A DNA stretch of 3,798 nucleotides from Escherichia coli (GTDB taxonomy: Bacteria > Pseudomonadota > Gammaproteobacteria > Enterobacterales > Enterobacteriaceae), in assembly GCF_003334255.1 (NCBI RefSeq), contig NZ_QOWU01000115.1; one strand, 5' to 3'. The notes beneath the pieces are model-generated. The model searched no databases. It saw only the letters and a program-made list of their open reading frames with translations, and was not told where the DNA came from. Of the stretch, positions 1,094 through 3,625 are shown piece after piece. Numbering within the stretch: the stretch's first letter is position 1; the number at the start of each line of letters is the position of its first letter. The translations under genes and the position numbers were made by a program.

Positions 1094-1687
1094 ATGATAA
1101 TAGCGATCAGTGCGGTTAAGGATCCGGTATATACCAGGCAGGGATGTATCAACTGTCTGGTGAAACTCACCGGAGTTGACGAGGAGGAGACGGACTGGCT
1201 TCCGTTTACGGCGACACCAACGGACGAAGCCCCTCATGGAAAAGAACTCTGGCAGGCACTGAACTCAGGTCAATATGGTCAAATCGCGCCGTATACTCAA
1301 CCGGAAGATGCGGTGGAAAAAGCCAGACAACAGAAAATTAATGAGATCAACGCCTGGCGTAATGCGATGGAAGCGGCGAACTACACGTTTGAGCACAATG
1401 GGCGTAAATGGGACTACGGGAAGTCAACGCAGACGCGTCTTGAGCCGTCGGTGGCGGCAGCGAAAGCGGGGAAACTGCCGGAGCAGTTTTTCTGGACGGA
1501 TGCGGACAATAATGACGTACCGATGGACGCTGAAACACTGATTGCTCTGAGTGCTGCTGCAGAGCAGGCGATGTTTACCAAAGGTCTGGAAATTCATGTC
1601 AGACAGCGCACGATGAAAAAAGAGATTGAAGCGCTGGGTGATGCGGAAGCTATACTGGCGTATAAGGTCGGCATGGCTGACAGGTGA
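1094..1687 (+). CDS. Tail-fibre-associated protein, probable tail fibre assembly/chaperone-type accessory protein (197 aa); function tentative
   Basis: Complete ORF from ATG 1094 to TGA 1685-1687. GAGG at 1084-1087 sits 6 nt upstream of the ATG, and the start is only 11 nt after the tail-fibre stop, suggesting translational coupling. GC about 50%, typical enterobacterial. Position directly after a tail-fibre gene is where phage assembly/chaperone genes sit. I do not see the classic lambda Tfa / P2 gpG C-terminal signature, so the family is uncertain. Confidence 0.7.
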   Translation: MIIAISAVKDPVYTRQGCINCLVKLTGVDEEETDWLPFTATPTDEAPHGKELWQALNSGQYGQIAPYTQPEDAVEKARQQKINEINAWRNAMEAANYTFEHNGRKWDYGKSTQTRLEPSVAAAKAGKLPEQFFWTDADNNDVPMDAETLIALSAAAEQAMFTKGLEIHVRQRTMKKEIEALGDAEAILAYKVGMADR

Positions 1688-1712
1688 AAAAAAGAGGGGC
1701 GCTCCAGCCCCT
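1687..1712 (-). terminator. Intrinsic-terminator-like hairpin, minus-strand orientation (stem AGGGGC/GCCCCT, loop 6 nt, then U7 on the minus strand)
   Basis: + strand reads A7 (1687-1693), g, aggggc (1695-1700), gctcca, gcccct (1707-1712). On the minus strand this is a GC-rich 6-bp hairpin followed by cTTTTTTT. On the + strand it is followed by tgctacaaag, so there is no U tract for ORF 1094-1687. Confidence 0.45.
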
Positions 1713-1815
1713 TGCTACAAAGCTATGGCTAAATAAAGAATACTCAGGTCGAGGAAATAATCTGGCAATGATAATTAAAGGAGATGCAACGGCCTCCTTC
1801 ACCCCTGTCAAAGAT

Positions 1816-1841
1816 AAAAAACTGGGGAGTGCGTGCTCCCC
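1816..1841 (-). terminator. Intrinsic-terminator-like hairpin, minus-strand orientation (stem GGGGAG/CTCCCC, loop 6 nt, then U6)
   Basis: + strand reads A6 (1816-1821), ct, ggggag (1824-1829), tgcgtg, ctcccc (1836-1841). The minus-strand RNA would be GGGGAGcacgcaCUCCCCagUUUUUU. There is no T tract after the hairpin on the + strand. Confidence 0.45.
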
Positions 1842-1984
1842 GAGAGCATGATACTTGTGGTTGATAGTTATTTTTATCCGGCGACAAAGATATTGAGATG
1901 AGGTCGCGGATGCAATACAGAATTTTCGTATTGCATGGTAACTGCTGATTCCTGAAACTGAAAGTCGTCATGAAACTGTAAGCG

Positions 1985-2011
1985 AAAAAACGGGGAGACG
2001 GCACGCTCCCC
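1985..2011 (-). terminator. Intrinsic-terminator-like hairpin, minus-strand orientation (stem GGGGAG/CTCCCC, loop 8 nt, then U6); paralogous to the hairpin at 1816-1841
   Basis: + strand reads A6 (1985-1990), c, ggggag (1992-1997), acggcacg, ctcccc (2006-2011). It has the same stem sequence and the same upstream A tract as the hairpin 168 bp to the left. Confidence 0.45.
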
Positions 2012-2162
2012 AAGGTCATACATGAGATAGTGGTGTTTTTATAGTCGAAAGAATAATTGCATAAAAAGAGTGTAAATTAAACATTCAGGGGATACAGAAT
2101 TTTCGTAGGCTGAGGGATTGCTGAAAATAATTTAGTGCGTCCTTCAATGGTCACTCAATAGT

Positions 2163-2198
2163 CATCAGATTGTGCTGATGTAAACAGTTAAGCACAAT
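2163..2198. promoter_or_regulatory. Two overlapping, mutually exclusive inverted repeats (candidate operator or RNA switch element)
   Basis: catcag (2163-2168) / ctgatg (2175-2180) with a 6-nt loop. attgtgct (2169-2176) / agcacaat (2191-2198) with a 14-nt loop. The second stem uses the loop and right arm of the first, so both cannot form at once. Confidence 0.3.
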
Positions 2199-2353
2199 TT
2201 GATTATTTGACTTTCTTCTTTTTGTGACTAACTTCACAATTAAATATGTAACCGTATACAAATTGTTGATGAATAAAGAGACAGCATAAGTGGCAGGCCA
2301 GTCGTAATGCGGATATCCCTTCGCGAACGTGATATCACCGACGTTATAGTAAG

Positions 2354-2391
2354 GAAATTCCGAAAAACTTCATATTAAAATTCGGAATTTC
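2354..2391. promoter_or_regulatory. 11-bp perfect inverted repeat with 16-bp AT-rich spacer directly upstream of a consensus Shine-Dalgarno (candidate operator or 5' leader hairpin)
   Basis: gaaattccgaa (2354-2364) and ttcggaatttc (2381-2391) are exact reverse complements; spacer aaacttcatattaaaa. The right arm ends 3 nt before AGGAG (2395-2399). Confidence 0.35.
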
Positions 2392-2406
2392 TTCAGGAGT
2401 AAGCTC

Positions 2407-2484
2407 ATGATAGCGGCGAGACATCAGATTTTCTTTATATATCCGATGTTGAACTGTTTTATTTGTATACAGATAATTTTATAG
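2407..2484 (+). CDS. Candidate 25-codon upstream/leader ORF ([25 protein letters not shown]) preceding the autotransporter gene; speculative
   Basis: AGGAG at 2395-2399 with a 7-nt spacer to ATG 2407. The stop TAG at 2482-2484 lies 10 nt before the autotransporter ATG 2495, a geometry compatible with translational coupling or a leader peptide. The peptide is hydrophobic. It overlaps the candidate promoter at 2449-2477, so the two models are alternatives unless a further upstream promoter exists. Confidence 0.25.
2449..2477 (+). promoter_or_regulatory. Candidate sigma70 promoter for the autotransporter gene (-35 TTGAAC, 17-bp spacer, -10 GATAAT)
   Basis: TTGAAC at 2449-2454 (5/6 to TTGACA), spacer 2455-2471 (17 nt), GATAAT at 2472-2477 (5/6 to TATAAT). 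The predicted TSS near 2484-2485 leaves only a ~10-nt leader with a weak GGG Shine-Dalgarno, which is a weakness of this model. Confidence 0.35.
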
Positions 2485-2494
2485 GGTATACCAC

Positions 2495-3565
2495 ATGAGC
2501 AAGAAATTTACAAAGACTATTCTTTCATCTGCTGTTGCCGGTCTGTTGTTGGTGAGTGGTGGTGCTATGGCGCAGGAGAATATAAAAATCGGTGATTATA
2601 CTATCGAGTTTTATGACAATGGTGACAGCGCAAAAATTGTTAATGAAAAAACAGATAGAGCAAATAATTGGGGATTGCTAGTTAATTTAAAAGATGGAGC
2701 TATTACAACGTTTAATAGAGATGAGTGGGAGAAAAAAGTAAAAGTAAATGGTATAAATAAGGCTCAATCACTTCTGGAGTCTGTTCGTTACACTATTGAT
2801 GCACCGTCTTTAAAAAAAGAAAATTTGGATAATATTACTGCTGAAGCTCTTGATAAAATAAAAACTAATGTAGAAGCTGTTTCAAAAATAATCACATCAG
2901 AAACTGCACCTGCATACAATGCAGCAGTTCGAAGTGGTATGAGTTCAGAGAATGCTCTAAAAATTGCTGGAGAAAAAAATGCTTCTGTTTTACTTAATGA
3001 ATTCGGCAAACTCAACAAGAATGTAAATCAACTGAAAAATGCCACTACATTTGCCCTTGATGAGAATGGTGAAATTACTGATGGACAGGGTGTTGAAAGT
3101 GTATCTGTGAAGAGCGTTGTTGCGGGTGTGAAAGCAGATACAACAATTTATCAGAATAAAGATGGCAGCTATACACTTGACCAGAGCGCACCGGACAACG
3201 TTCGTGTGAATGATGCTGTTGTCAGCCTCGACAACAGAACCCGCAGTAACACCCAGGCTATCCAGAATCACTCCCGCCAGCTGCAGGAGCATAACGCACG
3301 CCTGAACAGCCAGCAGCGCCAGATTCGTGAAAACCACGAAGAAATGAAACGTGCGGCAGCACAGAGTGCGGCGCTGTCCGGTCTGTTCCAGCCGTACAGT
3401 GTGGGTAAATTCAACGCCACGGCAGCCCTGGGTGGTTACAGTGACAAACAGGCTGTGGCTGTTGGTGTGGGTTACCGCTTCAACGAGCAGACCGCAGCCA
3501 AAGCAGGTATTGCGGCCAGCGACGGTGATGTTTCCTACAACGTAGGTGTGAACTTCGAGTTTTAA
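2495..3565 (+). CDS. Trimeric autotransporter adhesin (type Vc) with YadA-type C-terminal membrane anchor, 356 aa; prophage-borne and Eib-like in position and size
   Basis: Complete ORF ATG 2495 to TAA 3563-3565. N-terminus [28 protein letters not shown] is a classic Sec signal peptide (positive n-region, hydrophobic core, AXA site). C-terminus ...[65 protein letters not shown] matches the YadA anchor pattern (compare YadA ...GLFQPYGVGKVNFTAGVGGYRSS..GYRVNEN..KAGVAY..YNASFNIEW) and is preceded by a Gln/Arg/Asn-rich coiled-coil-like segment. A strong intrinsic terminator follows at 3591-3625. I did not assign a specific Eib allele. Confidence 0.92.
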
Positions 3566-3590
3566 TTGCTGACAGTGACATGAAGCATGA

Positions 3591-3625
3591 CGGCAGGCAC
3601 AGGAGTTTTGCCTGCCGTTTTTTTT
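3591..3625 (+). terminator. Rho-independent terminator of the autotransporter gene
   Basis: Perfect 9-bp stem cggcaggca (3591-3599) / tgcctgccg (3609-3617), 9-nt loop, followed by T8 (3618-3625), 26 nt after the stop codon. There is no U tract in the minus orientation, so it is unidirectional. Confidence 0.85.

Follow-up and report, generated by a model that had tools for sequence, protein, structure and literature searches.

A probable Eib-type cargo cassette behind the tail-fibre genes of a lambdoid Escherichia coli prophage

When a gene for a bacterial adhesin is found directly behind phage tail-fibre genes, the question arises whether it belongs to the virion, to the late operon of the phage, or to a separate cargo unit that serves the lysogen. 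This question was addressed for a stretch of 3,798 nucleotides from Escherichia coli (RefSeq assembly GCF_003334255.1, contig NZ_QOWU01000115.1), referred to below at its full length as the window, in which positions 1094-3625 carry a DUF4376 gene, an AT-rich spacer, a gene for a trimeric autotransporter adhesin and a terminator. The region is very probably an Eib-type cargo cassette of lambdoid E. coli prophages, seated in a variable slot after the tail-fibre and DUF4376 genes. Its architecture is already known, having been annotated in the records of the ECOR-9 prophages P-EibA, P-EibC, P-EibD and P-EibE (AF151091, AF151674-AF151676), which share the order orf-191, stem-loop, eib, stem-loop, orf-156 and orf-60; orf-191 is the counterpart of the DUF4376 gene of the window. 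Five further E. coli genomes showed the same gene order, as did two sequenced phages, and the cassette occurs both in lambda-like siphophages, after J-lom-stf, and in Sepvirinae-type podophages.

On the plus strand the window reads as the 3' part of the tail-fibre gene, an open reading frame (ORF) of 197 amino acids (aa), a gap of 807 bp, an ORF of 356 aa, a terminator and a truncated ORF. Its main features are as follows:

1-1082, plus strand: collagen-like (Gly-X-Y) tail-fibre gene, 3' part, from the ORF list; open at the left window edge
1094-1687, plus strand: DUF4376 tail-fibre-associated gene, 197 aa (RefSeq name DUF4376; phrog_1141 'tail fiber protein', E = 8e-81)
1688-2330, no strand assigned: distal spacer, non-coding, differing between loci (alignment, blastn, terminator scan)
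2331-2494, plus strand: putative regulatory region, 164 bp, moving with the adhesin gene (homology to GER2 from 2331 through the gene)
2495-3565, plus strand: trimeric autotransporter (type Vc) adhesin gene of the Eib family frame, 356 aa (Pfam, PDB profile, identity to EibA)
3591-3625, plus strand: intrinsic terminator of the adhesin gene, a G+C stem-loop followed by U8 (fold, GenBank stem_loop)
3656-3798, plus strand: truncated ORF, the first 47 codons of orf-156; open at the right window edge

The full tail-fibre gene encodes 671 aa, is named 'tail fiber protein' by RefSeq and matches PHROG tail-fibre families (E = 1e-152). Its GC content is 59.9% (66% in the collagen repeats) and that of the DUF4376 gene 52.2%, followed by 38.9% in the 807-bp spacer (1688-2494), with 34.6% in its gene-proximal half (2021-2494), and by 36.4% and 55.3%, respectively, in the passenger-coding (2495-3200) and anchor-coding (3201-3565) parts of the adhesin gene. 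A preliminary description made from the letters of the window had placed the adhesin gene after the tail-fibre genes and behind an AT-rich spacer, counted by hand at 32-40% GC. ORF order and base composition bear out this arrangement, and the hand count agrees with the computed values for both the proximal half and the whole spacer. Low GC content is a property of the spacer, as described, yet the contiguous AT-rich block is larger than the spacer alone: it spans 2021-3200, takes in regulatory region and passenger, and, at 34.6-36.4% GC against 52-60% in the flanking genes, has the foreign composition of a moron.

The best chromosome matches to the window were E. coli G1/2, G6/7 and G8 (100% coverage, 99.0% identity), and the matching phage records were P-EibA, P-EibC, P-EibD and P-EibE, plus GER2 and PhiR5_1. 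In G1/2, the closest complete genome, the locus lies in a lambdoid prophage of ∼62 kb that splits ynfG. The first part of this prophage carries integrase, recombination genes, cI/cro/cII-like genes, a nin region, lysis genes, terminase, portal and an N4-type capsid gene; the middle comprises the tail fibre, the DUF4376 gene, the adhesin gene, orf-156 and orf-60; the last part holds an internal virion protein, a tail-tip fibre, Lom, a giant LPD38 protein and a Panacea-domain protein, and the prophage ends with IbrB-like and PAPS-reductase genes (here ibrBA), antA/B and the other ynfG fragment. The prophage location that had been proposed is thus confirmed in G1/2, from the split ynfG and the integrase to antA/B. 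The placement 'downstream of the tail-fibre module' holds in that the cassette directly follows the tail-fibre and DUF4376 genes; it needs correction in that, in this podovirus-type prophage, the cassette does not close a tail module but has virion genes on both sides, internal virion protein, tail-tip fibre and Lom being still to follow. Terminase, portal, scaffold-like and major capsid genes of G1/2 are annotated as frameshifted (L001 10707-16919) while cassette and ibrBA are intact, so that this prophage may be defective but have kept its cargo.

The limits of the insert were obtained by comparison with two cassette-free Sepvirinae phages, P13374 and phiSTEC1589-Stx1c. Homology between phiSTEC1589 and G1/2 ends with the DUF4376 gene (window 1684; the DUF4376-type gene of P13374 was too diverged for alignment), and in both phages it resumes at the start of the internal-virion-protein gene (window-equivalent 4489). 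The distance between these two genes is 0.17-0.54 kb in the cassette-free phages versus 2.8 kb here, as expected for insertion of a moron. Break and resumption of homology therefore delimit an insert of ∼2.8 kb, from window 1688 to window-equivalent 4488, which consists of the spacer, the adhesin gene, the terminator, orf-156 and orf-60. The self-contained unit previously taken to end at 3625 has to be extended to include the last two genes.

The pattern of identity along the locus is that expected if conserved flanks permit the exchange of an AT-rich centre made up of the ∼164-bp regulatory region and the passenger. On the left, blastn gave 79-97% identity over 1315/1343-1684 in P-EibA/C/D/E, GER2 and PhiR5_1, and 84% between the G1/2 copy and phiSTEC1589. 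On the right, the stretch from the end of the anchor through the start of orf-156 (3280-3798) is 83-90% identical to other eib loci, and in the G1/2 copy this flank continues to the end of orf-60 (∼91% to P-EibA). Between the flanks, the sequence shared with the window comprises 1343-1911 and 2026-2550 in P-EibA and 2331 onward in GER2, and in P-EibC/D/E the central part is shared only over 2461-2577. Mosaic identity and GC content both break at ∼3200-3280. The junction of anchor, terminator and orf-156 was found at 180 places in 60 genomes (per genome, median 3, maximum 7), so that a carrier usually has several copies spread over different prophages, as in ECOR-9. The window differs from G1/2 at 40 positions, 30 of which fall in 1456-1586 (DUF4376 gene) and 5 in 3700-3712 (orf-156), the adhesin gene being identical; this clustering points the same way as the mosaic and looks like gene conversion between cassette copies of carrier genomes. 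The slot was also considered as a defence hotspot, a reading dropped when none of the cassette proteins matched a defence system in PADLOC.

Anchor and signal peptide of the adhesin are established by homology, which also supports the stalk. The protein is composed of a signal peptide (aa 1-26), a variable passenger encoded by AT-rich DNA, a predicted coiled-coil stalk (aa 238-297) and a YadA-type anchor (aa 298-356). Pfam YadA_anchor matched aa 298-356 over its full model length (E = 1e-15), and the PDB search returned 2lme, the anchor of YadA (E = 1.3e-18), and 2xzr, a coiled-coil fragment of EibD (E = 4e-8). On direct reading, the signal peptide (MSKKFTK...GGAMA, cleaved before QE) has the basic n-region, hydrophobic core and AXA site of a Sec substrate, and it aligns with Eib signal peptides. 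Identity to EibA is 41% overall, with the signal peptide and the last ∼110 aa nearly identical, and stalk and anchor are ∼85-90% identical to those of Eib proteins. An AlphaFold2 (AF2) monomer model (predicted local distance difference test, pLDDT, 67) showed a small N-terminal beta/alpha domain, helices, short beta connectors, a long helix at 238-297, which in this monomer aligns to 2xzr, and four C-terminal anchor strands; with Foldseek, the model matched only the anchors of YadA, AtaA and Hia. Repeats of the YadA head were not found in the adhesin. An assignment of the passenger fold was abandoned, with no call on head or ligand, the monomer model being mediocre and the Foldseek matches confined to the anchor. 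The exact protein occurs on 27 contigs, and E. coli has many homologues at 50-90% identity, whose sole annotation is 'YadA C-terminal domain-containing'. By analogy with its family, the adhesin most likely mediates adhesion or cell-cell chaining.

Could the protein be a part of the virion, or a true immunoglobulin-binding Eib? The former, with the protein belonging to the virion or tail fibre and not to the bacterial surface, would fit the phage annotations 'tail' and 'adhesin', the position next to the tail-fibre genes and weak 'tail' PHROG matches (phrog_17426, E = 1e-11; phrog_26246, E = 5e-9). Against such a role stand the YadA-type beta-barrel anchor for the outer membrane and the cleavable signal peptide of Sec type, which has an AXA site; related phages form virions without the adhesin gene, and we consider this explanation highly improbable. 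The latter ('EibX', binding the Fc portion of immunoglobulin G (IgG) or A (IgA) as do EibA and EibC-G) is favoured by the locus frame shared with eib genes, by the close identity of stalk and anchor and by the match to the EibD crystal fragment. However, alignment with EibA and EibC-E revealed a gap of 21 residues that removes DRIDxAVGxxDxRVTxNTQSIE, so that the IgG Fc-binding segment is not found in the window protein. The residues missing are EibD 384-404 (DRIDYAVGAIDGRVTRNTQSI-E), i.e. the first part of 384-418, which we take to be the published IgG-binding region; there is also no counterpart of EibD 329-344, presumably the stretch described as binding IgA. The mutagenic primer for D391A places the critical Asp of EibG at the second D of TDRID, within the missing stretch, and D391A is reported to abolish IgG Fc binding by EibG (bioRxiv 10.64898/2025.12.25.695649). 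According to the same preprint, Cla adhesins without the predicted IgG-binding residues failed to bind IgG Fc and kept their chain-like adherence. A true immunoglobulin-binding Eib is hence improbable. In our reading the protein belongs to the Eib frame, is as yet uncharacterised and probably binds neither IgG nor other immunoglobulins, the deletion being plain from the alignment and its consequence a probable one.

The segment upstream of the gene travels with it. Homology to GER2 starts at 2331, and the 168-bp upstream fragment cloned for expression of eibG from a plasmid begins at the homologue of 2331 (primer orf1Fw, by alignment); together these mark out a regulatory region of ∼164 bp that moves with the gene. 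The 168-bp fragment is reported to support eibG expression from a plasmid (bioRxiv 10.64898/2025.12.25.695649). Three features were recorded within the region:

2352-2393, no strand assigned: inverted repeat with a 13-bp stem (11 bp found as perfect repeat) and a 16-nt loop (z = -3.4)
2449-2477, plus strand: best sigma-70-like candidate, TTGAAC-17-GATAAT, 9 of 12 consensus positions; the sole such plus-strand site before the gene
2462-2473, no strand assigned: palindromic box TTTGTATACAGA, whose first 10 nt are TTTGTATACA; candidate operator

Eight upstream regions, otherwise only 72% identical, were aligned. The sequence TTTGTATACA (2462-2471) was invariant in 8/8, and conservation extended to an AGGG/AGGA Shine-Dalgarno sequence, an ATCAGA block and, at about -145, a block around TAnnGT-AAGnAAAtTCC; in seven of the eight diverged loci the -10-like position held a hexamer, either GATAAT or AATCAT. 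All 12 fetched eib-type loci carry TTTGTATACA as a single site at the same position, 24-33 nt before the start codon (in L006, L018 and L019 the site is a perfect palindrome and was hence counted on both strands), it is also contained in the eibG primer 1114orf1H1P1, and it is absent from the 9 other loci. In GER2, KY202 and STEC1585 the box at 2462-2473 is the perfect 12-bp palindrome TTTGTATACAAA. A second copy of the palindrome elsewhere in the prophage was not found within 2 mismatches beyond chance. The inverted repeat at 2352-2393 is the counterpart of the 'stem_loop' annotated upstream of eibA (AF151091); its hairpin is not preserved in EibC-type loci. On these sequence features a promoter inside 2331-2494 is likely, the exact site not being located. 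What stands of the candidate promoter named in the preliminary description is the conserved TTTGTATACA with a GATAAT-like hexamer; as a match to consensus, the site is no better than chance.

Downstream, the claim of a strong terminator was fully borne out. A G+C stem of 9-11 bp at 3589/3591-3617/3619 is followed by eight U at 3618-3625, its fold reached -27.4 kcal/mol (z = -4.7), none of 200 shuffles was as stable, and the element is annotated as stem_loop in all four P-Eib GenBank records. The terminator scan found no plus-strand terminator between the late genes and the adhesin gene, and late transcripts should therefore cross the adhesin gene as well. Relatives of the adhesin are made in uninduced cultures: expression without deliberate induction has been reported for EibG (PMC4352079) and for the ECOR-9 Eib proteins (PMC5450701), and EibG and other Eib proteins are reported to be more abundant in static or stationary growth (PMC4352079, PMC5450701). 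Expression from the repressed prophage, as had been envisaged, is consistent with these reports, although it is not exclusively independent of the late operon, given that late transcripts read in. Silencing by H-NS is plausible from the AT-richness of the block; literature searches found no H-NS data for eib genes.

The preliminary description had further proposed a dedicated activator and noted that no activator gene was visible. That is true of the window; in G1/2, however, the prophage that holds the adhesin gene also carries, ∼19 kb further downstream, IbrB-like and IbrA-like genes, and the idea survives in spirit in that ibrB is reported to enhance Eib expression (Sandt et al. 2002, as cited in PMC7649339). 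The G1/2 genes form an ibrBA pair (L010 1327-1971 and 1956-3182, 16-nt overlap), with a weak Pfam match of the IbrB-like protein to ParB_N (E = 0.009) and matches of the IbrA-like protein to PAPS_reduct and DUF3440 (E = 5e-24). This allele (at least 99% identity) was found in exactly 19 complete genomes, all 19 of which carry the cassette, and lies 18-21 kb downstream of a cassette copy in at least 12 of them. Looser ibrAB homologues are present in 1930 of 5426 genomes (∼35%), plasmids included.

The truncated ORF at 3656, put forward earlier as a candidate worth classifying, was classified from its full-length copy in strain G1/2 (orf-156; L001 23656-24126, 156 aa) as a predicted LuxR/FixJ-type DNA-binding protein. 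The family is narrow (31 representative clusters). Searches of orf-156 and orf-60 against Pfam, NCBIfam and PHROGs yielded families of unknown function at most. A profile of the orf-156 family against the PDB gave nine hits, all to LuxR/GerE-type helix-turn-helix (HTH) domains at profile positions ∼84-149 (best GerE, E = 0.006), and the AF2 model (pLDDT 91.5; predicted template modelling score, pTM, 0.87) showed a four-stranded alpha/beta domain followed by four helices. With Foldseek, the top 35 matches were all NarL/FixJ-type regulators (RcsB, FixJ, EvgA, DesR, VraR, VpsT), at a probability of up to 1.0, and in one public source the identical sequence already bears the name 'LuxR family transcriptional regulator'. 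Strand 3 ends in an invariant Asp (D52). A-T-R-N stands in place of the acidic pair behind strand 1, and only four strands are present, features that depart from a phosphorylatable receiver. As the acidic pair is absent, phosphorylation is unlikely and the protein would act independently of it. We accordingly predict a small NarL/FixJ-like protein whose receiver domain is degenerate and which ends in a LuxR/GerE HTH.

Several observations on the genes beyond the terminator were made alongside this classification. Distant orf-156 homologues (32-46% identity; L012-L016, metagenome and genome contigs) lie directly 3' of genes for surface or secreted proteins, one after the gene of another YadA-anchor protein and others after genes for large repeat proteins or RTX-type calcium-binding repeat proteins. 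Next behind the homologue in L015 comes another small GerE-domain protein, whose N-terminus is similar. The HTH region of orf-156 also survives as an unannotated remnant of 137 bp (77% identity) in ∼135 genomes (e.g. L022 3501-3637, O121:H19 FWSEC0006); in FWSEC0006 it lies after J-lom-stf-tfa and before the NleG and EspJ effector genes, in the cargo slot that exchangeable effector loci also occupy. The gene orf-60 (60 aa, L001 24126-24308) overlaps the orf-156 stop codon and has a hydrophobic, transmembrane-like end, MCFMLFVWLGGVLALVATAAVVMQ.

How far the cassette is transcribed and regulated on its own has to be weighed with care, as several results speak against such autonomy. Promoter-like sites in the upstream region were as frequent as in shuffled sequence (5 found, 5.0 expected), a start ∼7 nt downstream of GATAAT would leave the transcript without its Shine-Dalgarno sequence, and transcription may in truth begin further upstream, e.g. 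after the conserved TAnnGT at 2347-2352. The eibG result came from a multicopy pGEM clone, in which vector read-through is possible (bioRxiv 10.64898/2025.12.25.695649). On one alternative the cassette has no meaningful promoter of its own: the adhesin would be made only in the Q-antiterminated late operon during lytic growth, clumping lysing cells or decorating debris, and the upstream blocks would serve translation or RNA stability. The chance-level promoter match, the lack of a plus-strand terminator ahead of the gene and a position amid virion genes in a podovirus-type prophage agree with it. It is at odds with the production of EibG and ECOR-9 Eib in ordinary static or stationary cultures without induction, as reported (PMC4352079, PMC5450701), with the 168-bp upstream fragment that drives eibG from a plasmid and with the strong terminator next to the end of the gene, as autonomous units typically have. 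G1/2, moreover, has kept an intact adhesin gene despite its frameshifted terminase, portal and capsid genes; the same frameshifts imply that lytic read-through, which we propose below, may no longer occur there. On balance, exclusively late expression seems unlikely.

The regulators call for similar caution. Linkage of ibrBA to the cassette is suggestive only and can be explained by shared phage ancestry. For orf-156, Pfam gave no hit (GerE none even at E ≤ 10), GerE is matched only marginally (E = 0.006), and with Foldseek the E-values range from 7e-4 to 1e-2 only. K-12 lysogens with eib prophages, and hence with orf-156, reportedly made little Eib, which argues against orf-156 as a sufficient activator. 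It has nonetheless to be asked whether orf-156, and not IbrAB, is the dedicated regulator, acting through the TTTGTATACA(AA) palindrome in the adhesin promoter. Since the palindrome lies between -35 and -10, orf-156 would more likely repress or fine-tune than activate, and low-level synthesis by read-through of the adhesin terminator would provide feedback. The predicted LuxR/GerE HTH on a NarL/FixJ-like fold speaks for this, as do the presence of orf-156 after the trimeric autotransporter gene in 13/13 eib-type loci (the window and the 12 fetched), a conserved recognition-helix region paired with an invariant palindrome, the distant homologues behind other surface-protein genes, and the lack of an obvious promoter between terminator and orf-156 on direct reading of 3617-3655. 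Besides the marginal E-values, its linkage could be hitch-hiking within one recombination block, and the 12-bp palindrome is shorter than LuxR-family boxes, which are typically longer. Published activity is reported to map to ibrAB (PMC7649339). Regulation by orf-156 in place of IbrAB is therefore a minority view and rather unlikely.

The distal spacer (1688-2330) contains further elements. Spacers of this type were found at 71 places in 27 of 5426 complete E. coli genomes. Three hairpins are terminator-like on the minus strand only, the A run preceding the stem on the plus strand:

1688-1712, minus strand: hairpin 1 with a T7 run (stem-loop 1712-1695), abutting the DUF4376 stop codon (terminator scan, fold)
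1816-1841, minus strand: hairpin 2 with a T run (z = -2.8), conserved in P-EibA and PhiR5_1
1985-2012, minus strand: hairpin 3 (terminator scan, alignment, fold), its stem broken in PhiR5_1

At the position of hairpin 1, GER2 has an A-run and hairpin of other sequence in the same layout. The function of hairpin 3 is doubtful in view of its broken stem in PhiR5_1. The minus-strand hairpins may keep leftward or antisense transcripts that start in the AT-rich cargo from entering the tail genes; alternatively, they may form the 3' ends of small leftward RNAs. The unit 1816-1940 folded better than its shuffles on either strand (minus, z = -3.8; plus, z = -2.9), whereas folding of the other two units was no better than shuffles, and the spacer copies are too alike for covariation analysis. 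The small-RNA explanation was not adopted, with one of three units folding above shuffles and the third hairpin degenerate in PhiR5_1. An Rfam scan of the whole window (E ≤ 1) gave no match, and the hairpins of the spacer therefore belong to no described RNA family. The spacer holds ATACAGAATTTTCGTA twice, as an exact direct repeat of 16 nt at 1915-1930 and 2092-2107, 177 nt apart, each copy ∼100 nt from a hairpin. The segment 1912-2025 (114 bp) is missing in P-EibA, which suggests a duplicated spacer unit. A 55-codon ORF on the plus strand (1684-1851), whose GTG start overlaps the DUF4376 stop codon (GTGA), crosses two hairpins and has a counterpart annotated as a hypothetical protein in phage PhiR5_1; it is probably no real gene.

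Under the cargo-cassette reading, transcription in the lysogen would start within 2331-2494 and end at the terminator 3591-3625, and the adhesin would be exported to the outer membrane of the lysogen by way of its signal peptide. Expression would be low unless activated, with ibrBA, found in the closest genome at the right-hand end of this prophage, as the putative activator pair and orf-156 as a second candidate regulator linked to the cassette, for which the TTTGTATACA(AA) palindrome is a plausible operator. During lytic growth, antiterminated late transcripts would read the whole cassette. A more speculative extension, which we rate as unlikely, is that the cassette is a self-regulating module in which orf-156, as a minimal LuxR/FixJ-like protein that binds TTTGTATACA(AA), and IbrBA make up a phage circuit timing the display of the adhesin, while the minus-strand terminators insulate the tail genes or mark leftward RNAs.

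Taken together, the interpretation given in the preliminary description is supported in its prophage site, composition and terminator, and revised in the end of the unit and its relation to the tail module. The general picture of morons stays as before, and what is new is modest: an allele without the IgG-binding stretch, a predicted LuxR-type orf-156, an invariant promoter palindrome and ibrBA in the same prophage. Eib-type adhesins affect attachment, chain formation and serum resistance of commensal and Shiga-toxigenic E. coli (STEC), and deletion of eibG is reported to lower lethality in mice (bioRxiv 10.64898/2025.12.25.695649). The family frame also holds alleles without the IgG-binding stretch, and presence of the gene can therefore not be read as 'immunoglobulin-binding'. 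The 164-bp mobile region, the invariant palindrome and two candidate phage-borne regulators (orf-156 and ibrBA) offer handles on eib regulation.

Among known systems, the ECOR-9 Eib loci are closest. Flanks and most of the spacer are 90-97% identical to P-EibA at the DNA level, and signal peptide, end of the stalk, anchor and invariant promoter box are the same. The passenger sequence, in contrast, is unrelated and without YadA-like head repeats, the protein measures 356 aa versus 392-511 and lacks the 21-aa IgG-binding stretch, the spacer has the 114-bp extra segment 1912-2025 relative to P-EibA, and the host phage is a Sepvirinae-like podovirus in ynfG (G1/2), unlike P-EibA, in which the genes ahead of the cassette are lambda-like J-lom-stf. 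EibG and the Cla/Yal adhesins of STEC negative for the locus of enterocyte effacement are described as likewise prophage-associated coiled-coil trimeric autotransporters (bioRxiv 10.64898/2025.12.25.695649). EibG and ClaA have the promoter box of the window and the C-terminal VGVNFEF of its protein, and the Cla proteins share with the window allele the lack of IgG-binding residues. The N-termini of ClaA and ClaB (MKNNDRKY and MKINRHGI) differ, so that the window protein is neither of the two, and both are reported from other genomic contexts (bioRxiv 10.64898/2025.12.25.695649). With NarL/FixJ-LuxR regulators that have atypical receivers (RcsB, EvgA, VpsT, CsgD-like), orf-156 shares a predicted receiver-like alpha/beta domain, a predicted GerE-type HTH behind it and the invariant D52; it differs from them in its much smaller size (156 aa), its four strands, the lack of an acidic pair behind strand 1, its position below the Pfam threshold and its narrow family. 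Finally, the cassette resembles lambdoid morons (lambda lom and bor) and the exchangeable effector loci behind the tail-fibre genes of STEC prophages as late-region cargo of foreign composition with its own terminator, inserted between genes that are adjacent in related phages, and is set apart from them by conserved internal flanks for passenger swapping, the predicted regulator orf-156 and the putative small membrane protein orf-60.

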